Source of the DNA: Acidimicrobiia bacterium
GTDB lineage: Bacteria; Actinomycetota; Acidimicrobiia; IMCC26256; PALSA-555
Assembly (NCBI GenBank): GCA_040881685.1
Contig: JBBECS010000015.1
Location: 3,736 to 67,735 of the forward strand
DNA: 64,000 nucleotides
Reading direction: 5' to 3'
A program made the position numbers and the translations under genes. The notes beneath the pieces were generated by a model. The model had not been told where the DNA came from and ran no database searches. It was given only the letters and a program-made list of their open reading frames with translations. This document shows, piece after piece, positions 53,302 through 64,000 of this stretch. How positions within the stretch are numbered: the first letter of the stretch is position 1; each line of letters starts with the position of its first letter.

Positions 53302-54417
53302 TCAGCGCGGCCAGATCGCGCCTTGGGCGCGGTCGATCCAGCCGGTGCGCTCGAGCTCGAACAACGCGACGGCGACGCGTTCTGGAGTGAGAGCCGCGCG
53401 ACTCGCGAGCTGGTCTGGGGTTGCCGCGTCGCCCCCGAGTGCGCGGAGCAACGCGGCGCCGTCGGACCCTGGTGTAGGGCGCGCCGGCGCCCGGAGCGCG
53501 GGGGCACTCCCGTCCGAAAGGCCGAGCGCGACGAGCAGGTCACTCCACTCGAGGAGCGGTTGGGCGCCATCGGCGATGAGCTCGTTCGTGCCGTGCGCGG
53601 CGGGGTTGCGTCGGGATCCCGGCACCGCGAGCACCGTGCGGCCGTACTCGAGCCCGTACTGCGCGGTGATGCGCGCGCCGCCCTTCAGGGTGGCCTCGAC
53701 GACGACGACCACCTCGGCGAGCGCGGCGATGATGCGGTTGCGCACTGGGAAGCGCCAACGCTCCGGACGAGCACCGAACGCGGCTTCACCGACGACGATC
53801 CCGGCGGCGCGCACCCGCTCGTACAGCGATCGGTGGCGACGCGGGTATTCGATGTCAACCCCGGTCGCGACGACACCCACCGTGAGCCCGCCGGCGGCGA
53901 GTGCTCCTTCGTGCGCCGCCGCGTCGATGCCGATGGCCATGCCGCTCACGACCGTGATGCCGACCGCGCCCAGATAAGCACCGAGCTCGCGCGCGTCCGT
54001 CAGGCCGTGAGGCGAAGCCGCGCGAGTGCCCACGATTGCCACGCGGCGCGCCGCGAGCGCATCCGGCCGTGCCCCCTCGGCGAGGAGCACCGAAGGACGG
54101 TCGGGAACGGGATCATCGATCGGATAGTCGGGAGCGCCATCGACCCACACGAACGTCCCGCGCCGTGCAAGTCGCAACGCCATGCCATCCGCGTCGACCG
54201 AGCTCCGCCAGTCGCGAGCAAGAGCGATGCGGCTCGACATCATCGGGGTGCCGCGTTCCGCCGAGAGCTCGGCATCGGCTGCGCGACCCTCACGGACTGC
54301 GACGAGGGCCTGCCGAACGCTCCCGAAATGATCAACAAGTGCGCGCAGGCGGCCCGGTGTCATCTTCGGAAGGCACGCCAGCGTGGCCGCGGCCACCTCT
54401 CGGCTTGGTTCGGTCAT
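53302..54417 (-). CDS. dprA: DNA-processing protein DprA
   Basis: VAIVGTRAASPHG...VVSGMAIGIDAAAHEGAL...TVGVVATGVD..YP, with a C-terminal winged-helix-like tail. The ATG overlaps the comM stop (ATGA). Confidence 0.9.
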   Translation of the reverse strand: MTEPSREVAAATLACLPKMTPGRLRALVDHFGSVRQALVAVREGRAADAELSAERGTPMMSSRIALARDWRSSVDADGMALRLARRGTFVWVDGAPDYPIDDPVPDRPSVLLAEGARPDALAARRVAIVGTRAASPHGLTDARELGAYLGAVGITVVSGMAIGIDAAAHEGALAAGGLTVGVVATGVDIEYPRRHRSLYERVRAAGIVVGEAAFGARPERWRFPVRNRIIAALAEVVVVVEATLKGGARITAQYGLEYGRTVLAVPGSRRNPAAHGTNELIADGAQPLLEWSDLLVALGLSDGSAPALRAPARPTPGSDGAALLRALGGDAATPDQLASRAALTPERVAVALFELERTGWIDRAQGAIWPR

Positions 54418-55928
54418 GGCACGTCTTCGCGCAGCAGGGCGGCCCAGAGCACGTGGGCTTCCCGGACATCAGGTGAGTCGTCGAGGTCGGCCAGCGTGCG
54501 CGCCACGCGACGGATACGCGCCGCACCGCGACCAGTCATGCCTCGAAGCTCCGCCTGCGCCCGCCATGCGGCGAGCGCCTCCGGACTGAGAGGGACGAGC
54601 CGCTCGAGTGCTCCCGCCGGAATGTGGCCATTGGTTCGCCACGGCGTGCCCGTGAGACGCGCGTGCTGACGAGCTACCGCGCCCGTCACGCGCTCGCGAA
54701 CCGCTTGGGAGGACTCACCGGTCGAGTCGACGGCTTCGGGAGGACGCACGGCGAGCCGGAGATCGAAGCGGTCGAGCAATGGAGCCGAGAGTCGGCGCCG
54801 GTAGCGAGCCCGTTCACGCTCGCCGCATGCACATCCGGGCGGGCCGAGGCCACACGGGCACGGATTCGTGCACGCGACGAGCAGGAAGTCCGCGGGAAAC
54901 GTGAGTGTGATCGGCTGGCGCGCGATCCGCACGACCCGCTCTTCGAGGGGCTGCCGGAGCGCGTCGAGTGCACTCGGGGGGAACTCGCCCAGCTCGTCGA
55001 GGAAGAGCACGCCACGGTGGGCGAGCGTGACCTCGCCCGGGTTCGGGCGACCGGCCCCACCCCCGACGAGCGCGGGCACCGACGCCGTGTGATGCGGCGC
55101 GCGCACGGGTGGTCGGCGCATGAGCCCGCGAGGGGCGCGGCCAGCGACGGAGTGGATGCGGGTGGCTTCGAAGGCTTCGTTGTCGCCCAAGGCGGGCAGG
55201 ATCGTGGCGAGCCGACGGGCCAGCATCGTCTTGCCGGCGCCGGGCGGTCCGGTGAGGAGCAGGTGGTGGTGGCCAGCAGCGGCGACCTCGAGCGCGCGTC
55301 GCGCCCAGGCCAGACCACGCACGTCGGCCAGGTCAAGCGGTTCGGCATCGAAGGGCTCGTCATCGTCGCCACGCGCGGGAGGCGGCGGGGGATCGGGCCA
55401 GGCCGCTTCACCCTTGAGGCAGGCGCGCAGCTCCCTGAGCGAACGCGCGACCCGAACCTGTACACCGCGCGCGAGCGCAGCCTCTGCGGCATCGGCGTCG
55501 GGGACGATGACCGTGGCAACGCCGATGTGCACGAGTGCATCCACGAACGCGAGCGTGCCGGGGACCGATCGGACCGACCCGTCGAGTCCGAGCTCGCCGA
55601 CGACGCCGACGCCGTCGAGCACACCAGCAGGCAGCTCGTCGGCACCGAGCAGCAACCCGAGCGCGACCGCGAGCTCGAGGCCGGCGCCCGTCTTGCGTAC
55701 ACCGCCTGGCGCGAGGTTGACGGTGATGCGTTGCTGGGGCCACGGCAAGTCCGAAGACAGCAGGGCGGCGCGCACTCGCTCGCGTGATTCGCGAACCGCC
55801 GTATCGGGGAGCCCGACCAGGTGATACGCGGGCAGCCCCGCGGACACGTGGACCTCGACCGTGACGATCTGCCCCTCGACACCGAGCAGCGTGGCGCTGA
55901 CCACCGACGCGAGCACCGCGACCTCCAA
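54414..55928 (-). CDS. comM: Mg-chelatase-like ATPase YifB/ComM
   Basis: Lon-protease-like N-terminal domain, then LLLTGPPGAGKTMLARRL, GVLFLDELGEF, and Cys-rich CPCG...C.CG. The start is TTG 55928 or GTG 55919. Confidence 0.9.
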   Translation of the reverse strand: MEVAVLASVVSATLLGVEGQIVTVEVHVSAGLPAYHLVGLPDTAVRESRERVRAALLSSDLPWPQQRITVNLAPGGVRKTGAGLELAVALGLLLGADELPAGVLDGVGVVGELGLDGSVRSVPGTLAFVDALVHIGVATVIVPDADAAEAALARGVQVRVARSLRELRACLKGEAAWPDPPPPPARGDDDEPFDAEPLDLADVRGLAWARRALEVAAAGHHHLLLTGPPGAGKTMLARRLATILPALGDNEAFEATRIHSVAGRAPRGLMRRPPVRAPHHTASVPALVGGGAGRPNPGEVTLAHRGVLFLDELGEFPPSALDALRQPLEERVVRIARQPITLTFPADFLLVACTNPCPCGLGPPGCACGERERARYRRRLSAPLLDRFDLRLAVRPPEAVDSTGESSQAVRERVTGAVARQHARLTGTPWRTNGHIPAGALERLVPLSPEALAAWRAQAELRGMTGRGAARIRRVARTLADLDDSPDVREAHVLWAALLREDVP

Positions 55929-56089
55929 CGGAGAGCCGGTGCGAGCGCACCGGACCGGGCTGGCAGGTCGTCAACCGCGACCGCGACGGGTGGAAGGCAC
56001 CGTATGAGCCGGGTGTGACAGCACCGATCTCGGGCGCAGCGAGGCAGGTGGTGGTGTGGGAGGCCACGTTGAGTGGCTACCGTTTGCGG

Positions 56090-57001
56090 ATGCCCTGGGA
56101 TGTTGATGGCTATCTGGCCACGCTGGGCGGCAGGAGCCCCCACACCCAACGGGCCTACGAGCACGACGTTCGTGAGTTCGTGGGCTGGGCCGAGCGGGGT
56201 GGCTGCCCCGAGCCGGTGAACGCCGACCGCCGAGCACTGCGCCGATACCTCGCCTTTCTGGGCACTCGGGGTTTCGCCCGTCGCTCGGTCTCGCGCAAGG
56301 CGGCCGCGGTCCGGGCCTACCTCCGGCACCTCCACCGCCAGGGCGTGTTGCCCACGGATCCGGGCCGCGCCCTGCGCGCGCCGCGTGGCGACGCCCGGCT
56401 GCCGCGGGTCCTGCGGGCCGAGGAGGCCGCCGCGCTCCTCGACGGTGCCGGCGCGCGGGTCGACCTGCCCGACACGCTCGACGATCCGCTCGCCGCCGCG
56501 CTCGCGCGCCGTGACGTCGCCGTCCTCGAGGTCCTCTACGGCGCCGGGCTGCGCGTGAGCGAGTGCTGCGGTCTGAAGATCGAGGACTGCGATCTCCGGG
56601 CCGGGCTCGTCACCGTGCTCGGGAAGGGTGGCCGCGTCCGGCGCGTCCCGATCGGCGAGCCCGCGCGCGACGCAGTCACTGACTGGCTCAGTCGCGGCCG
56701 AGCCGTGCTGGCAACACCCGACTCACCGCCCGACGCGGTGTTCCTCGCGCGCCGAGGCGGTGCACTCTCCACGCGTGAGTCGCATCGCATCGTCGCCGCG
56801 CAGCCCACAGGCACGCGCGGCAAGCTCCATCCCCATGCACTTCGGCACGCGTATGCGACGCACCTCCTCGAGGGCGGCGCCGACCTGCGTGCGGTGCAGG
56901 AGCTGCTTGGTCATGCCGACCTGGCCACCACGCAGATCTACACGCACGTGACCCGCGACCGCCTCCGCGCCGTCTACGACGAAAGCCATCCCCGTGCCTG
57001 A
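56090..57001 (+). CDS. xerC: tyrosine recombinase XerC
   Basis: SPHTQRAYEHDVREF, LYGAGLRVSE, GKGGRVRRVP, HALRHAYATHLLEGGADLRAVQELLGHADLATTQIYTHV. Confidence 0.9.
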   Translation: MPWDVDGYLATLGGRSPHTQRAYEHDVREFVGWAERGGCPEPVNADRRALRRYLAFLGTRGFARRSVSRKAAAVRAYLRHLHRQGVLPTDPGRALRAPRGDARLPRVLRAEEAAALLDGAGARVDLPDTLDDPLAAALARRDVAVLEVLYGAGLRVSECCGLKIEDCDLRAGLVTVLGKGGRVRRVPIGEPARDAVTDWLSRGRAVLATPDSPPDAVFLARRGGALSTRESHRIVAAQPTGTRGKLHPHALRHAYATHLLEGGADLRAVQELLGHADLATTQIYTHVTRDRLRAVYDESHPRA

Positions 57002-57773
57002 CGATCCGGAGACGACCGCGCTCGTCAACGACCTCTGGCAGGTCTACAAGAAGGGCGGCACGACCGCGGCTCGCGAGCGCCTGATCATCCACTACTCGCC
57101 GCTCGTGAAGTTCGTCGCCGGCCGCGTTGCCTCCGGGCTCCCACAGAACATCGAGCAGACCGACCTCGTGAGCTACGGGATCTTCGGGCTCATCGACGCC
57201 ATCGACAAGTTCGAGCCCGAGCGCGGCTTCAAGTTCGAGACGTACGCGATCGCTCGCATCAAGGGCGCGATCATCGACGAGCTCCGCTCCATCGACTGGG
57301 TGCCGCGCTCGGTGCGGGCTAAGGCCCGTGCGGTGGAGCGCGCCTACTCCGAGCTCGAGAACGAGCTGCGCCGGAACCCGCAGGACTCCGAGGTGGCCGC
57401 GAAGCTCGGGCTCTCCGAAGACGAGTTCGGCCAGACGCTGTCGCAGATCTCGTTCACCGGTCTGGTCGCGCTCGACGAGCTGATCGGTGGCGGTAGTGGC
57501 GATGGCGGGGGTGGTTCCACGCTGGGCGACACGATCTCGGACGGTGGCCACAACCCGGTCGAGGCGTTTGAAGTCGACGAGATGAAGCACCTGCTCGCCG
57601 ACCTGATCAACCGGATGCCCGACCGCGAACGTCTCGTCCTCACCCTCTACTACTACGAGGCGCTCACCCTGGCGGAGATCGGCCAGGTGCTCGGTGTCAC
57701 CGAGAGCCGCGTGTGCCAGATCCACACCAAGGCGATCCTCCAGCTGCGCGCCCGTCTGGCCGACCCCGCGTAG
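56994..57773 (+). CDS. whiG: FliA/WhiG-family RNA polymerase sigma factor
   Basis: DLVSYGIFGLIDAIDKFEPERGFKFETYAIARIKGAIIDELRSIDWVPRSVR is the region 2 to region 3 stretch typical of the sigma-28/WhiG group. Region 4 reads LTLAEIGQVLGVTESRVCQIHTKA. The GTG overlaps the xerC end. Confidence 0.9.
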   Translation: MPDDPETTALVNDLWQVYKKGGTTAARERLIIHYSPLVKFVAGRVASGLPQNIEQTDLVSYGIFGLIDAIDKFEPERGFKFETYAIARIKGAIIDELRSIDWVPRSVRAKARAVERAYSELENELRRNPQDSEVAAKLGLSEDEFGQTLSQISFTGLVALDELIGGGSGDGGGGSTLGDTISDGGHNPVEAFEVDEMKHLLADLINRMPDRERLVLTLYYYEALTLAEIGQVLGVTESRVCQIHTKAILQLRARLADPA

Positions 57774-57785
57774 GCGCCCAGAAAA

Positions 57786-57836
57786 CCCCGCTCGACCTCT
57801 TCCCATTCGTCGCGCGCGCCACTACGGTGCGCTCGC
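57786..57836 (-). repeat. second-type repeat copy in the whiG to M23 gene spacer
   Basis: It carries CCCCGCTCG (57786-94) and GCGCGCCACTACG (57814-26, identical to 32422-34). CGGTGCGCTCGCAC is the inverted counterpart of CGGTGCGAGCGCAC at 55938-51. Confidence 0.5.
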
Positions 57837-57882
57837 ACTTCCTTTGGCTTCCCCGCCCGTGCTCTAGCTCCGGGGGAGGCCG

Positions 57883-59715
57883 ATGCCACCGCCTCGTTCG
57901 TTGGGTTGGCGCGTGCGGTGGCTCGCCTTCGCCACCCTCGTCGCAGTCGTTGCCACCGCACTGCCAGACGCGCCGGCCGGCGCTGACAGCTCGACTTGGG
58001 CTCCGCCGGTGCCTGGCGCCGTTGTTCGTCCGTATGTCGAGCCGCTCGCTCGTTTTGCGTCGGGCCATCGAGGCGTCGACTTCGCCGCCCCGGCCGGCAC
58101 CGAAGTTCGCGCCGCGAACGACGGCCGCGTCACGTTCGCTGGCACTGTCTCGGGCTCGCTCCATGTCGTGGTCGAGCACGCGGGCGGCATTCGCACGTCG
58201 TACTCGTTCCTCGCTCGCATCGAAGTCGACGAAGGAGCCGCGGTGCGCCGCGGCGAGACGCTCGGGATCGCCGGTGGGAGCGGGGGCGGTCACCGCCCCG
58301 GCGCCTTGCACTTCGGTACCCGGATTGGTGATCGCTACTTCGACCCGATGCTCCTCTTCGGACCGACGGATCTCACCGAGCTGGTGCGTCTCGTTCCTTC
58401 TGGGGTGCGTGTTCCATCCGACGAGACGTTCATCTGGCGCGAGCTCCAGGACGACGGCGACGACTGCGCGGGCGGCATCCCGCTGGTGGAACAGCTGTGC
58501 GACGCGGGGGAGGCGGTCGTTGGGGTCGTCGGCGAACGTGCCCGAGAGCTGTGGGAGCAGGTCGAGGACTTGGTCGACCTGGGGCTTGCCGCGCTGCGGA
58601 CGGTCGTGGAGGCGACCCGTGAGCTGGTCGAGCGGGTCGAGCGCGTCGCGCGCGACGTCCTCCAGACGCTGCGCGATGTGGCCAACAAGGTTGAACGCGC
58701 CGTCGAGGAGCTGGCCACCAAGATCGCCAACGGCGCGATCGCGGTCTTCAACGCCGTCGTCGAGGCAGGACGGAAGCTGTACGAACAGCTCACGTCGTGT
58801 CCACAGCCACCGCCGCGAGCGCACTCGAAGGGTTCGGGAAACGTCGCCGTCGCGGTTGGTGGTCTCGGCAGCTGGAGGCGGCGTCAGCAGCCGGACGCGC
58901 ATGGCGATGCATACGACGAGAAGTTCCAGACCCGCTGGCGGATGCTCGGCTACGACCGCGACGAGGTCGAGTACTTCTCCTACCGGCCCGGGTCACGGAC
59001 GTATGGCCCGAAGGACACCTTGAGCGATCTTCACGCGCAGGCGCGGTCGCTCGGGCGTCAGATCCAGGAGCAGGCACGTGCACATCCGGGCACGGCCATC
59101 GACCTTGTGGGCCACTCGCAGGGCGGGCTCGTCATCGACCTGTTTCTGACCGACGTCTACGGCGGCCACGAGGATGAATACCCACCAATCGACAACGTCG
59201 TGACGTTCGGTTCACCGCACGAAGGCACGCCCATCGCCGATCTCGGGCAGCAGATCAGCGATCACATGTTTGCCGGACCGATCGTGAGGTTGCTCGACCC
59301 GACCGACATCATCGGCGCGGAGTCCGTCGAGCAGATGACGTCGGACTCGGAGACGATCAAGAAGCTCTGGGACGCCGGCGAGGCTCCGGAGGACATTCGA
59401 TTCATCTCGATCATCGGTTCCGAGGATCCGATCGTGCCGTCCAACCGTGCCGACGTGCCGGGTGCGACGAAGGTCGTCGTACCGGCCGGCGCCCCGCTGT
59501 GGCCTGATGACCATTCGGCAGTGCTTCGCGATGACGACGCGATCAGCGCCGCGCAGGCACATCTGAGCGGACGCGCACCGGCCGACTCCTGCGGCTTGTT
59601 CACCGATGTCGGCGGCTGGCTCTACACGGAGCTCGTCGACAAGGTCAACGAGAGGATCTCGTTGACGCCCGGCGGCACCGCACATCCCTACAACCCGGAG
59701 TACTGGCGATCATGA
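57883..59715 (+). CDS. secreted M23 peptidase domain / coiled-coil / alpha-beta hydrolase (lipase-like) fusion protein
   Basis: Signal-like N-terminus WLAFATLVAVVATALPDAPAGA. The M23 region is GHRGVDFAAPAGTEVRAANDGRVTFAG...ALHFGTRIGDRYFDP. A helical linker of about 120 aa follows. The C-terminal domain has the nucleophile elbow GHSQGG and candidate Asp (GSEDPIVP) and His (PDDHSAV). The SD-like GGGGGAGG lies just upstream. Confidence 0.85.
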   Translation: MPPPRSLGWRVRWLAFATLVAVVATALPDAPAGADSSTWAPPVPGAVVRPYVEPLARFASGHRGVDFAAPAGTEVRAANDGRVTFAGTVSGSLHVVVEHAGGIRTSYSFLARIEVDEGAAVRRGETLGIAGGSGGGHRPGALHFGTRIGDRYFDPMLLFGPTDLTELVRLVPSGVRVPSDETFIWRELQDDGDDCAGGIPLVEQLCDAGEAVVGVVGERARELWEQVEDLVDLGLAALRTVVEATRELVERVERVARDVLQTLRDVANKVERAVEELATKIANGAIAVFNAVVEAGRKLYEQLTSCPQPPPRAHSKGSGNVAVAVGGLGSWRRRQQPDAHGDAYDEKFQTRWRMLGYDRDEVEYFSYRPGSRTYGPKDTLSDLHAQARSLGRQIQEQARAHPGTAIDLVGHSQGGLVIDLFLTDVYGGHEDEYPPIDNVVTFGSPHEGTPIADLGQQISDHMFAGPIVRLLDPTDIIGAESVEQMTSDSETIKKLWDAGEAPEDIRFISIIGSEDPIVPSNRADVPGATKVVVPAGAPLWPDDHSAVLRDDDAISAAQAHLSGRAPADSCGLFTDVGGWLYTELVDKVNERISLTPGGTAHPYNPEYWRS

Positions 59716-60863
59716 GCGCTCACCTTCACCGATTTGGCACGTTCCTCACGCTGTTCGTGGTGGTCGTCGTGCTCGCGGGACACCCCGCGGCACGCGCCGC
59801 GGAGCCGACGCTCGATGAAGGTTGGCAATCTTCCGGACCTATCGAACCGCAGTCGCTCGCGGCCGACGCGCAGGGCGCGGTGGCGCTCGGACGCACAGGT
59901 GAAGTCGTCGTCGTCGACGCCGCTGGCCTCGAGCGATGGCGGCGGACCATCGTGGCTGACGTCGACTTCGGCCCAGTTGCTATCGGCGCCGACCTCGTGG
60001 TCGTCACCGTCGACGACGAAGGACTGATCGCGTTCGAGCGGGCGTCGTCGGAGGGCCGGTGGGAGCACCTGGCTGCGGGTGCGCGCGACGTCGCCGTCGG
60101 CGCCACCTCCGACGGCACGAGCGCGGTTGCGGTCGTGAGTGACCTCGGAGTCCTCGAACTCGTGGATGGTGCGACGGGGACCGTGCGCTGGACGGCTGCG
60201 TTCCCGATCGCCGACGCGATCATTGCCGCGCGCACGTGGGTCGTCGGCGAACGCGTTGTGCTCTTCTGGACCGACGATGCCGGTGCTCATGTGCGGGCGT
60301 TCACCTCAGACGGCGGTAGTGAGAGCTGGGGGAGTGATTTCCCAGAGTCCTCGTCGATGGCCGCGGTCAGCGACGAGTCGGTCACGATCGCGGAGAACTT
60401 GCGGATTGACCGGCGCGAGCGGGTCGTGACCGAGATCCGCCACTTGGCAGTCCTGGATGGGAGCGAGCTCTGGGCGCGTCGCTCGCGCAGCAGGTCCCCG
60501 TACTCGAGCGGACTGGAAACCGTGGCGGCTCCACAGGGGATCGCGTTGGTGGACCTGGCTGGGAAGGTGACGGTGCTCGACCCGAGCACGGGGAAGGTGC
60601 GCTGGAAGATGGCGACCGGCCTCGTGCAATTCGAGGCCGAACCCCACGTCGTCGGCGAGGTGTTCGCCATGACGACCTACGGCACAGGGATCATGTTGGC
60701 CAACATGGCCGACGGCGACGCGATCTCCACCGATGCGCTCGACCCGACCCAGACCGCAGCGACCATCGAGGCGAGCGCCGCGGCCGGCGATCACCTTTAT
60801 CTCCTCGTCTCGCGGTTGTGGGGCGACCCTGAGATCTGGATGCTGCAGGCCGGCCCCGCCTGA
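59712..60863 (+). CDS. PQQ-like beta-propeller repeat protein, secreted
   Basis: Signal-like [20 protein letters not shown]. The repeated motif x-D-x-x-t-G-x-x-x-W appears as [44 protein letters not shown] and [12 protein letters not shown]. The ATG overlaps the upstream TGA (ATGA). Confidence 0.75.
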
Positions 60864-61005
60864 GAACCGGCTCGAGACCCCCACTACACTGACTCCTCGA
60901 CTCGGACCTTGGTCCGGGATCTCACACGCTCGCAGCAACTCTCAGGTCGTCGTCGCCCTCGGGCCTCGGCGCCAGCGGGCGGATGTACAACTTGAGGAGT
61001 CCCTC

Positions 61006-61962
61006 GTGGCTGTCGTCACCATGAAGCAGCTTCTGGAGGCCGGGGTCCACTTCGGTCACCAGACGCGCCGTTGGAACCCGAAGATGCGTCGCTTCATCTT
61101 CGGTGAGCGCAACGGCATCTACATCATCGATCTCCAGCAGACGCTCGAGCGCATCGACACTGCCTTCCGCTTCATCCGCAAGACGGTGGAGGACGGCGGC
61201 ACGGTGCTGTTCGTGGGCACGAAGAAGCAGGCCCAGGAGCCCGTGCAGAGCCAGGCCGACCGGTGCGGCATGCCGTACGTGAACTACCGGTGGCTCGGCG
61301 GCATGCTCACGAACTTCCAGACCGTGCACGCCCGCGTGTCCAAGCTCCACGAGCTCGACCGCATGGTGACGTCGGGCGAGACCGAGCAGATGATCAAGAA
61401 GGAAGGCCTGAAGGTCAAGCGCGAGCGAGACAAGCTCCAGCGCAACCTCGGCGGCATCACCCGCATGGAGAAGCTCCCCGACGCGGTGTTCGTGATCGAC
61501 ACCAAGAAGGAGCACATCGCGGTCACCGAGGCGAACCGGCTCGGCATCCCCGTCATCGCGGTGGTGGACACCAACTGTGATCCCGACATCATCGACTTCG
61601 TGATCCCCGGCAACGACGACGCGATCCGTTCAGCCACGCTCATGAGCCGCATCGTCGCCGACGCGGCCGACGAGGGCCGCCTGCTCGCGCAGCGCAAGGC
61701 CGGCCCGGCCAAGCCGGCGAAGGCCGACACGCCCAAGGCGCCGCCACCAAAACCCCTTGACCCCGAAGAGGCGGCGCGCAAGGCCGAGGAGCAGAAGCAG
61801 GCGCGTGATGCGGCCGCGGCTGCGCAGGCCGAGCGCGAGGCGAAGCTCAAGGCATCCAAGAAGGACGCGCCGCCCGACGACGCGCCGGCGGAAGCCGCAG
61901 CGGAGCCCGAGGCGGCAGTGGCTGACGAACCAGCTCCTGACGAGACGGCGGCGGCCACCTGA
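61006..61962 (+). CDS. rpsB: 30S ribosomal protein S2 with Ala/Pro/Lys/Glu-rich C-terminal extension
   Basis: (M)[45 protein letters not shown]. The GTG start at 61006 gives the canonical actinobacterial MAVVTM N-terminus. Confidence 0.95.
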
Positions 61963-62801
61963 TGGCCGAGTTCACTGCCGCGGACGTCGCGGCGCTGCGC
62001 AAGGCGACGGGTGCCGGGATGATGGACTGCAAGACGGCGCTCACCGAGAGCAACGGCGACATGGACGCAGCCAAGGACTGGCTGCGTACCAAGGGCCTGT
62101 CCGGATCCGGGCGAGCGCGCGCGGCCAACGACGGGGCGGTCGAGGTGATCGTCGATGGCAACGTGGGCGCGCTCGTCGAGCTCACGGCGGAGACCGACTT
62201 CGTGGCCAAGGGCTCCGTGTTCACGGACACGGTCACCAAGCTGGCGCGCCTCGCGGTCGAAGAGGCCAAAGAGGAGATCGCCAAGCTCGACTTCGAAGAC
62301 GCGACGGTCGAGGAGCACATCACCCAGCTCGCAGCCAAGCTCGGCGAGAACATCGGTCTTGGGCGCGTCGTGGTGTACGAGTCCGCCGACGGTCTCATCG
62401 ACGGCTACAAGCACATCCAGACCGGGCGCGGCACGATCGGCGTGCTCATGGAGCTCGCCGGCGTCGATCCCACTGACGCCAAGGCCAAGGAAGTCGCCCA
62501 CGACATCGCGCTGCACGTGGCCTCGGCCGCGCCGCGCTGGACGACCCGCGACGAGGTGCCGGCCGACGTGGTCGAGAAGGAGCGGGCGGTGCTCGAGGAG
62601 CTCACCCGCAACGAGGGCAAGCCCGACGCTGCGATCCCGAAGATCGTGGAGGGCCGCATCGGCGGCTTCTACAAGGAGAACGTGCTGCTCGAGCAGGCCT
62701 TCGTGCGTGACTCCAAGACGACGATCGGCAAGCTGGTGGAGGGTCTGGGCAAGGACGCCACCGTGCGCCGATTCGCGCGAGTGAAGGTCGGCGAGGACTG
62801 A
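61962..62801 (+). CDS. tsf: translation elongation factor Ts
   Basis: FTAADVAALRKATGAGMMDCKTALTESNGDMDAAKDWLRTKG. The ATG overlaps the rpsB TGA. Confidence 0.95.
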   Translation: MAEFTAADVAALRKATGAGMMDCKTALTESNGDMDAAKDWLRTKGLSGSGRARAANDGAVEVIVDGNVGALVELTAETDFVAKGSVFTDTVTKLARLAVEEAKEEIAKLDFEDATVEEHITQLAAKLGENIGLGRVVVYESADGLIDGYKHIQTGRGTIGVLMELAGVDPTDAKAKEVAHDIALHVASAAPRWTTRDEVPADVVEKERAVLEELTRNEGKPDAAIPKIVEGRIGGFYKENVLLEQAFVRDSKTTIGKLVEGLGKDATVRRFARVKVGED

Positions 62802-62804
62802 TCC

Positions 62805-63542
62805 GTGGCGCCCAAGAGCCAGTACCGACGAGTGGTGCTGAAGCTCTCGGGTGAGGCGTTCGCCGACACCACCATCGGCTACGGCATCGACGCCAAGGTC
62901 GTGCAGCGCATCGCCGACGAGGTGGCCAGCGCGCGCAGCGATCTCGGGGTGGACATCGCCGTCGTCGTGGGTGGCGGCAACATCTTCCGCGGCATGAGCG
63001 GGGCCAAGCGAGGGATGGACCGGGCCCGCGCCGACTACATGGGCATGCTCGCCACGGTCATCAACGCGCTCGCACTCCAGGACGCGCTCGAGGCGGCAGA
63101 TCAGCCCACGCGGGTGCAGACCGCCATCGCGATGGCCCAGGTGGCCGAGCCGTTCATCCCGCTGCGTGCGATCCGTCACATGGAGAAGGGGCGCGTGGTC
63201 GTCTTTGCCGCCGGCACCGGCAACCCCTACTTCACCACCGACACCACCGCAGCCCTGCGCGCCGCGGAGATCGGCGCCGAGGCGATCCTGAAGGGCACCC
63301 ACTCGGGTGTTGACGGCATCTACACGGCCGACCCCCGGAGCGATCCCAAAGCAGTGAAGCTGACCGAGGTGAGCCACTTCGAGGTCCTGAACCAACGGCT
63401 CGAGGTGATGGACTCGACCGCGATCACGTTTTGCATGGACAACGCGCTCCCGATCATCGTGTTCGACGTGATGGAGCCGGGAAACATCGCACGGGCGCTC
63501 CTCGGCGAGCCGATCGGCACGATCGTGCACACTGCGGTCTGA
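62805..63542 (+). CDS. pyrH: UMP kinase
   Basis: [41 protein letters not shown] and [14 protein letters not shown]. Confidence 0.95.
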
Positions 63543-63561
63543 GACGCGGGAGACTCGCCCC

Positions 63562-64000
63562 ATGGCCGACAACGAGCTCACCGACATGGTCGTGGAGGAT
63601 TGCCACGACAAGATGCGCAAGGCGATCGAGCACCTCAAGGGGGAGTTCGGCGCGGTGCGCACCGGGCGCGCCAGCGCGGCGCTCGTGGAGAAGCTGATGG
63701 TGGACTCCTACGGCGCGATGGTGCCGCTCCAGCAGCTCGCCGGGTTCAGCGTGCCCGAACCGCGCCTGCTGGTGATCTCGCCGTACGACAAGAACAACAT
63801 CAAGGGCATCGAGAAGGCGATCAACACCAGCGACCTCGGGGTGAACCCCAGCAACGACGGCGCGGTGATCCGCCTCTCGTTCCCGCAGCTCACCGAGGAG
63901 CGCCGCAAGGAGCTCGTGAAGGTGGTGAAGAACCGGGCCGAGGAGGGCCGGGTGGCGGTGCGCAACATCCGCCGGGAGGCTCGCAAGGATCTGGAGGCAC
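63562..64000 (+). CDS. frr: ribosome recycling factor (partial, runs off the right edge)
   Basis: The ATG at 63562 gives [60 protein letters not shown]...[17 protein letters not shown]. It is absent from the ORF track because no stop codon lies within the window. Confidence 0.9.

Follow-up and report, generated by a model that had tools for sequence, protein, structure and literature searches.

In the M23 family, two histidines (His216 and His247 of Pgp3) are strictly conserved and belong to the core catalytic machinery, and the H247A variant of Pgp3 is catalytically inactive and has been used for substrate complexes (PMC6978369); the H109A variant of Enterococcus EnpA is inactive as well (PMC8269130). 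A wall-binding domain can also be joined to a lipolytic one, as in Ms6 LysB, which carries an N-terminal peptidoglycan-binding domain and a lipolytic alpha/beta hydrolase (PMC8309991). Here we analysed a gene that joins an M23 (LytM-type) domain to a lipase-like alpha/beta hydrolase in a single 610-aa fusion protein, located in a 64,000-nucleotide stretch of DNA (the window) from an Acidimicrobiia bacterium (assembly GCA_040881685.1, contig JBBECS010000015.1, positions 3,736 to 67,735, forward strand). The fusion gene is real, unbroken and conserved as a fusion. Judging from residue conservation and a structure model, the hydrolase is the conserved catalytic centre of the protein, while the M23 domain has very probably lost its peptidase chemistry. 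The role that we favour, with modest confidence, is that of a Sec-exported, wall-tethered serine esterase or lipase in which the M23 module serves for binding and not for cleavage, with a beta-propeller protein as the probable partner.

The fusion is an uncharacterised domain combination built from familiar parts. A first reading made from the sequence alone (the sequence-only reading) had taken M23 plus a lipase-type domain not to be a described architecture, and our literature searches agree: they gave no description of an M23-lipase fusion, of the Pfam family DUF7379 or of the Streptomyces neighbours SCO5622/SCO5623, and a review of M23 proteins (PMC9662197) mentions no lipase or esterase fusion. 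The architecture is not rare within its clade, with hundreds of sequence clusters. Some members carry the automatic JGI label 'Peptidase family M23/Putative serine esterase (DUF676)'.

The closest functional analogue is LysB, given that in both proteins a non-catalytic wall-binding module would stand N-terminal to an alpha/beta-hydrolase serine esterase whose target is an ester-linked or lipid component of the envelope, the binding and esterase roles being predicted ones for the fusion protein. However, neither module is homologous. The binding module is of the PG_binding_1 type in LysB and a degenerate M23/LytM domain here, the fusion hydrolase does not resemble a cutinase (its Pfam Cutinase score of 22.6 falls below the cutoff of 25.9), and the fusion gene occupies a chromosomal housekeeping slot whereas LysB belongs to a phage lysis cassette. 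No LysB was among the top 50 matches in a viral structure library and, with Cutinase below its cutoff, kinship to LysB or the cutinases is unsupported. To our knowledge, no production of mycolic acids is known for Acidimicrobiia, hence the substrate of the fusion protein must differ from that of LysB.

Integrity and conservation of the fusion gene

A Shine-Dalgarno sequence (GGAGG) lies 5 nt 5' of the ATG of the fusion gene, and the G+C content at third codon positions (GC3) of the open reading frame is 0.68-0.90 in each 60-codon window, with second positions at about 0.5. Among the 5.8 billion proteins searched there is a public match 100% identical to the fusion protein, along with over 100 full-length relatives (570-640 aa, 36-71% identity), with the M23 domain first and the hydrolase second in all of them. 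Because the frame shows no break and full-length homologues share the same layout, a frameshift or assembly artefact is excluded; the uniform frame and the hundreds of co-linear homologues likewise rule out two separate genes. The sequence-only reading had described a single gene for a secreted-looking protein with an M23 domain ahead of a lipase-like alpha/beta hydrolase, and had considered that a frameshift might hide two genes. The first description stands, and the second fails on the uniform GC3 and the full-length homologues.

The five motifs quoted in that reading are all present and occupy invariant or near-invariant columns in a 44-sequence alignment, namely GHRGVDF (H62, D66), ALHFGTR (A141, H143), GHSQGG (S412), GSEDPIVP (D515) and PDDHSAV (H544). 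A larger set of 210 relatives with both domains nearly complete was also aligned (21-99.8% identity to the query, median 34%), and all named sources among them are uncultured Acidimicrobiia or Actinomycetota genomes. The residue counts below refer to this set, and the structural statements to AlphaFold2 (AF2) models with their predicted local distance difference test (pLDDT) scores. The parts of the gene, all on the + strand, are as follows.

57883..59715, +, gene for the fusion protein, 610 aa, ATG start, TGA stop at 59713-59715 (open-reading-frame list, GC3, Shine-Dalgarno sequence, homologues)
57883..57984, +, putative Sec signal peptide, aa 1-34 (read from sequence; N-terminal helix 7-26 in the AF2 model)
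57994..58362, +, M23/LytM domain, aa 38-160 (Pfam PF01551, Pgp3 alignment, pLDDT >90)
58066-58068, 58078-58080 and 58309-58311, +, metal-ligand positions kept, H62, D66 and H143
58207-58209 and 58303-58305, +, F109 and A141, which replace the general-base histidines
58291-58293, +, conserved family-specific H137
58363..58407, +, conserved segment after the M23 domain, aa 161-175, motif DLTxLVRLVP (44-sequence alignment)
58408..58710, +, variable amphipathic helical spacer, aa 176-276 (DSSP helices, alignment, periodicity)
58711..59607, +, lipase-like alpha/beta hydrolase, aa 277-575 (AF2 model, Foldseek, triad census)
58798-58800 and 59590-59592, +, conserved cysteines C306 and C570
58864-58866, +, L328 in the oxyanion-type GGLGS loop
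59116-59118, 59425-59427 and 59512-59514, +, triad residues S412 (GHSQGG), D515 and H544
59608..59712, +, poorly conserved C-terminal tail, aa 576-610 (17% mean identity)

Catalytic residues and folds of the two domains

The hydrolase domain, modelled alone, gave a confident structure (pLDDT 91.6, predicted template-modelling score 0.89) that includes a leading helix (277-304) and a helical cap (about 450-498). The nucleophile elbow is formed by strand 406-411, the turn G410-H-S412-Q-G414 and helix 413-426, Asp515 follows strand 506-512, His544 lies ahead of helix 546-549, and the Gly-rich GGLGS loop comes after the first core strand. All relatives have Ser412, Asp515 and His544 (210/210 for each), and the Ser/Asp/His triad named in the sequence-only reading is correct in that all three are invariant and sit at canonical positions in a confident model. 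A Foldseek search against the PDB gave 514 matches at E <= 1e-3, the top 50 of which are lipases, esterases, monoglyceride lipases and one phospholipase. The nearest solved folds are Streptomyces MAS1 (5h6g, E 5e-11, template-modelling (TM) score normalised to the target 0.63), Acinetobacter LipA, CALB, MAJ1 and LipC12, with monoglyceride lipases, an esterase and a phospholipase lower in the list. The domain shares with the secreted lipases MAS1/MAJ1 and LipA the GHSQGG elbow and a G-[ST]-P-H-x-G-[ST] motif after the next strand, while these lipases have no M23 module. Going by the model, the chemistry of the hydrolase is most likely that of an esterase or lipase.

Searched alone at E <= 1e-3, the hydrolase domain finds 662 clusters (50% identity) among 1.84 billion representatives. 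Both modules are present in 113 of the top 150 clusters, most of the others being N-terminal fragments; this hydrolase subfamily is mostly, not exclusively, tied to the M23 fusion. Four full-length hydrolase relatives (P0145, P0176, P0190 and P0183) have another helical N-terminus of 120-330 aa without a Pfam match, and two of them (P0145 and P0183) show sub-threshold matches to the Tle3 phospholipase-effector family of the type VI secretion system. Proteins of this type may be secreted lipase effectors.

The M23 domain is recognised by Pfam Peptidase_M23 (PF01551) over residues 61-155 with 73.2 bits against a cutoff of 28.7 (E 2e-20), and profile searches of the PDB match Pgp3, NMB0315, zoocin A and DipM with E from 5e-19 to 1e-12. 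The family profile aligns best with Campylobacter Pgp3 (E 5e-19). In this alignment GHRGVD falls on H168xxxD172 of Pgp3, Y107-S-F109-L on Y-Y-H216-L (the equivalent of LytM His260) and A141-L-H143 on H247-L-H249. The fusion protein thus shares sequence and fold homology, the HxxxD motif and the second His of HxH with canonical M23 peptidases (Pgp3, LytM, lysostaphin, MepM), but unlike them it has Phe and Ala in place of His216 and His247 of Pgp3. Its closest PDB match is the engineered, inactive Pgp3 H247A, and the top-scoring chains (6jn0/6jn1) show ALHFG only as that mutant. The PDB title "A109H mutant" might suggest that EnpA naturally has Ala at 109; we rejected this precedent, since the crystallised protein is the inactive H109A form and A109H restores the wild type.

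Across the relatives, the position equivalent to His216 is never His (0/210; Phe in 157, Tyr in 23), and the position equivalent to His247, where Val, Ala or Gly occur, is His in a single sequence (1/210). The metal-ligand positions are kept in most (H62 in 185/210, D66 in 203/210, H143 in 205/210). His62 is replaced by Asn in 25 relatives (12%), all with an intact hydrolase triad, and His143 is lost in divergent members, including L043, again with the triad intact. The very probable loss of peptidase chemistry is deduced from the absence of both general-base histidines. The sequence-only reading had considered the domain possibly degenerate from the first His of HxH, which is borne out and understated. 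A triad that is invariant while the M23 metal ligands erode is what would be expected from selection on hydrolase, not on M23, catalysis. At the same time the M23 segment is the most conserved part of the protein (mean identity 66%, against 46% for the hydrolase, 24% for the spacer and 17% for the C-terminal tail), so the domain must do something specific.

The same residues bear on the idea, put forward in the sequence-only reading, of combined action on peptidoglycan and a lipid. As a truly bifunctional enzyme, the fusion protein would cleave cross-links with its M23 domain through a non-canonical base (e.g. His137 or His94) and cut a lipid or ester with its hydrolase, thus acting on two envelope layers. 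The retention of the metal-ligand positions in most relatives and the very strong conservation of the M23 domain fit such an enzyme, as does His137, which stands in a GH dipeptide six residues ahead of the last zinc ligand, is conserved in 165/210 relatives and has a counterpart in the GH found at the same place in short Actinomycetes (phylum Actinomycetota) orthologues. However, both core M23 catalytic histidines are gone family-wide, mutation of a single such His inactivates Pgp3 and EnpA, and the 12% of relatives that also lack the first metal ligand and yet keep the triad show the pattern expected without selection on metal catalysis. We regard two catalytic activities as distinctly unlikely, and the M23 domain most likely binds only.

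Directly after the M23 domain lies DLTELVRLVP (aa 163-172, 58369-58398), in which D163, L164, T165, V168 and L170 are invariant in the 44-sequence alignment and which is modelled with a pLDDT of about 40 despite this conservation. Relatives without a linker carry altered forms, e.g. IDAASAVHLVP and QDLSSAIRLAP. It is possible that a partner, or the hydrolase domain, docks on this motif.

The sequence-only reading saw a long coiled-coil of about 120 aa between the two domains, and this is not borne out. The model has helices at 181-189, 200-212 and 218-269 (DSSP) with a pLDDT of 35-49, the span aa 181-276 has 24% mean identity and a length of 78-125 aa across relatives, and its composition is rich in Val, Glu, Ala, Leu and Arg. 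The hydrophobic moment of residues 200-269 peaks at 3.6 residues (1.81) compared with 0.90 at 3.5, and in three relatives (L027, L028 and L031) the two domains are joined by merely 15-25 residues or so. Given the low pLDDT, the variable length, the 3.6-residue periodicity and its near-absence in these three, a canonical coiled coil is not supported, and the segment is better described as a variable amphipathic helical spacer. Because it is dispensable in some relatives, the spacer is a lineage-specific insertion, and the conserved core of the architecture consists of the degenerate M23 domain and the hydrolase. Profile searches with 58480-58800 (aa ~200-305) gave weak matches to designed helical bundles, apolipoprotein A-IV and apolipophorin-III (1eq1, E 5e-4), and in Pfam the spacer matches ApoLp-III and Phasin_2 below threshold. 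They may hint at binding to lipid surfaces or reflect mere Ala/Glu/Leu/Val-rich composition.

A degenerate M23 domain next to a helical region recalls EnvC, in which a LytM domain is combined with a long helical region, and the fusion protein could accordingly be a regulator like EnvC, NlpD or DipM. Its M23 domain would then bind and activate or scaffold another wall hydrolase (e.g. an amidase) instead of peptidoglycan, its helical segment might dock on a membrane complex such as FtsEX, and its hydrolase would be an independent second function. The best Foldseek superpositions of the M23 domain are indeed on the LytM domain of EnvC (8c0j_B and 4bh5, target TM 0.83 and 0.81) and on DipM (7qrl_C, 0.75), at 29-35% identity, and an M23 fold that lacks the peptidase activity is what EnvC, NlpD and DipM and, very probably, the fusion protein have in common. 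It is known that degenerate M23 domains act as hubs for division proteins and in amidase activation (PMC9662197, PMC8594824), and a conserved protein partner would suit the strong conservation of the M23 segment. We nevertheless consider such a regulator unlikely. The metal ligands are gone from EnvC and NlpD, but most fusion relatives keep H62, D66 and H143 (the first being lost in 25/210), and the domain order is reversed, the coiled coil of EnvC being N-terminal. In addition, the helical segment of the fusion protein is dispensable in the three linker-less relatives and not heptad-periodic, no alpha/beta hydrolase is attached to EnvC, NlpD or DipM, and no amidase or ftsEX gene is found in the conserved neighbourhood.

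The locus and the short M23 genes next to rpsB

The fusion gene sits in a block of the order comM (- strand), xerC, sigma factor gene, fusion gene, propeller gene, rpsB and tsf, and its immediate neighbours are the following.

56994..57773, +, WhiG/FliA-type sigma-70 family gene, upstream (Pfam Sigma70_r2/r3/r4; synteny)
59712..60863, +, PQQ_2/BamB-like beta-propeller gene, 383 aa, product secreted or membrane-anchored (Pfam PQQ_2, E 3e-16)

The ATG of the propeller gene overlaps the stop of the fusion gene by 4 nt (ATGA, 59712-59715), and xerC and the sigma factor gene overlap by 8 nt (56994-57001). Both overlaps suggest translational coupling within a long series of co-directional genes that continues into rpsB-tsf. 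The same order, followed by pyrH, frr and cdsA, is found at the loci of two relatives at 48% and 38% identity (L001 and L002), and it is kept in most of approximately 27 fusion-type loci from species-representative genomes, all of them in uncultured Acidimicrobiia or "Actinomycetota" metagenome-assembled genomes (MAGs). On two oddly labelled contigs, titled as MAGs of Bifidobacterium breve (L038) and Burkholderiales (L043), the fusion gene precedes rpsB and tsf genes that share 50-69% identity with those of the window, and L038 also has xerC upstream. These contigs are probably mis-binned or contaminating because their flanks show the actinobacterial arrangement. The linker-less L031 lies among unrelated metabolic genes, a context that is uninformative.

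In the scan of 57600-61200 no sigma-70-type promoter was found, and the Rfam scan of 54000-64000 gave no match. Two terminator-like hairpins with T-rich tails lie within the M23-coding region (58007-58052, +), compared with a shuffled expectation of 1.2 +/- 1.1, and are probably due to chance.

The propeller is a probable functional partner of the fusion protein. Its gene stands beside the long form, is not found beside two short M23-only Acidimicrobiia genes (L029 and L030) and is missing in four long-form loci. A coupled downstream gene for an exported partner is also known from lipA-lif, although the partner here is a PQQ-type beta-propeller and not a helical Lif foldase as in family I.1/I.2 LipA-Lif. 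One protein joins M23 and PQQ domains in 948 aa (P0092, L003 6001-8847). We discounted it as Rosetta-stone evidence for a hydrolase-propeller complex: the sigma, comM and rpsB genes are split on L003, and the protein is probably an indel artefact because the 4-nt overlap lets a single indel fuse both genes. The same cause may apply to P0151, in which hydrolase and PQQ domains share one open reading frame.

A tightly coupled downstream gene also recalls an effector-immunity layout. This would fit a secreted antibacterial or scavenging exoenzyme, whose M23 domain targets the walls and whose lipase targets the membranes of other bacteria, with the propeller as an immunity-like inhibitor; the related hydrolases behind other helical N-termini, with their weak Tle3 matches, point the same way. 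Those matches are sub-threshold, however, four fusion loci have no propeller gene, and the housekeeping slot (xerC, sigma, fusion gene, rpsB, tsf) is fixed down to 36% identity and holds the counterpart of a phylum-conserved gene. Because this position is fixed, unlike that of mobile polymorphic toxins, vertical inheritance and a cell-autonomous role are indicated, and we consider an antibacterial role very improbable.

The statement of the sequence-only reading that an M23 gene adjoining rpsB is common in Actinomycetota is confirmed by the synteny survey. Cultured Actinomycetes (Streptomyces, Amycolatopsis, Blastococcus, Kutzneria, Microbacterium) match the M23 part only, and have a short M23-only gene in the same slot between rpsB and sigma/xerC. 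The short proteins have the signature GHRGVD ... TTYEPV ... GH.GC....CLHWG; like the fusion protein they lack the general-base His and keep the last His and the conserved GH, but they stop where the M23 domain ends (some 130-190 aa from the motif) and have no spacer, hydrolase domain or adjoining propeller gene. Those of the class Actinomycetes differ further in that their genes are divergent from rpsB and in that Cys occupies the first HxH position (CLHWG). Since the short proteins share the degenerate signature, the presumed loss of peptidase chemistry predates the fusion and marks the whole rpsB-adjacent clade. In short orthologues (L032-L083, e.g. L058 6001-6354 and L064 6001-6507) the Cys at the first HxH position is preceded, 5-8 residues upstream, by another conserved Cys, and the pair could form a disulfide or an altered metal site. 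The literature counts Rv2891 among three M. tuberculosis genes that have an M23 domain and no assigned function (PMC8594824). Its locus tag suggests that it adjoins rpsB, and it appears to belong to the same clade.

Proposed role and its meaning for Acidimicrobiia

In the favoured reading of a wall-tethered esterase or lipase, Sec export would place the fusion protein in the envelope. Residues 1-34 have an Arg-rich n-region, the hydrophobic stretch LAFATLVAVVATAL and A-G-A ahead of D35, and neither a lipobox Cys nor a twin-Arg motif was seen in them on reading the sequence; export by Sec is probable. The M23 module would dock non-catalytically on peptidoglycan stem peptides or, less likely, on a conserved wall-associated partner, and the spacer would give the hydrolase access to a substrate, ester-linked or lipid, close to the wall or membrane. 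There the Ser412-Asp515-His544 hydrolase, with its Gly-rich oxyanion loop and helical cap, would act on an envelope ester or lipid, and the translationally coupled propeller may serve as a regulator, inhibitor or positioning factor.

Several points weigh against this role. The signal peptide was recognised from the amino acid sequence only. The degenerate LytM domains of EnvC, NlpD, DipM and SpoIIQ work through protein-protein contacts, and His137, which is conserved and close in sequence to the metal site, may replace the general base or be an extra metal ligand. The similarity of the hydrolase to characterised lipases is marginal: the best phmmer match in the PDB is MAJ1 (E 0.002), the only significant one, the Burkholderia and Pseudomonas lipases follow at E 0.03-0.09, and identity to the nearest solved lipases is 12-20%. 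Pfam DUF7379 (PF24096), which the identical protein (P0001) also carries in its precomputed annotation, reaches 33 bits against a cutoff of 33 over residues 384-453 only, and Palm_thioest, DUF915, Cutinase, PGAP1, Lipase_3 and DUF676 are borderline or sub-threshold. Given these marginal sequence matches and the threshold-level Pfam score, the hydrolase is a distant, uncharacterised lipase-like branch. Acyltransferases, thioesterases and some peptidases have lipase-like folds too.

A more specific form of the wall-tethered model, which we regard as rather improbable, is a bridging device. In it a non-catalytic zinc-site M23 domain would clamp a stem peptide, the amphipathic spacer, through its variable length, would act as a ruler to the lipid layer, and the hydrolase, together with the propeller, would remodel, release or transfer acyl groups on an undescribed wall lipid or lipoglycan of Acidimicrobiia. 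If true, this would mean an unrecognised envelope lipid component in an uncultured class, and would offer a first functional handle on the phylum-wide clade of rpsB-adjacent M23 proteins.

NCBI names members of the family (e.g. P0062, P0085, P0096, P0110 and P0117) 'peptidoglycan DD-metalloendopeptidase family protein'. This annotation is probably misleading for the whole family, given that the catalytic histidines are absent and the hydrolase domain is unannotated.

The findings do not overturn current understanding, and the fusion family is a well-supported lead. The position of the rpsB-adjacent M23 gene is conserved across Actinomycetota, and the fusion lineage has added a lipase-like enzyme and a propeller to it. 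Together, the fusion and the shared degenerate signature hint that the ancestral job of the rpsB-adjacent clade was wall binding or targeting, not cutting. Few Acidimicrobiia are in culture, although freshwater, marine and soil metagenomes contain them in abundance, and a probable wall-tethered lipase encoded at a housekeeping locus makes their envelope lipid chemistry worth examining.

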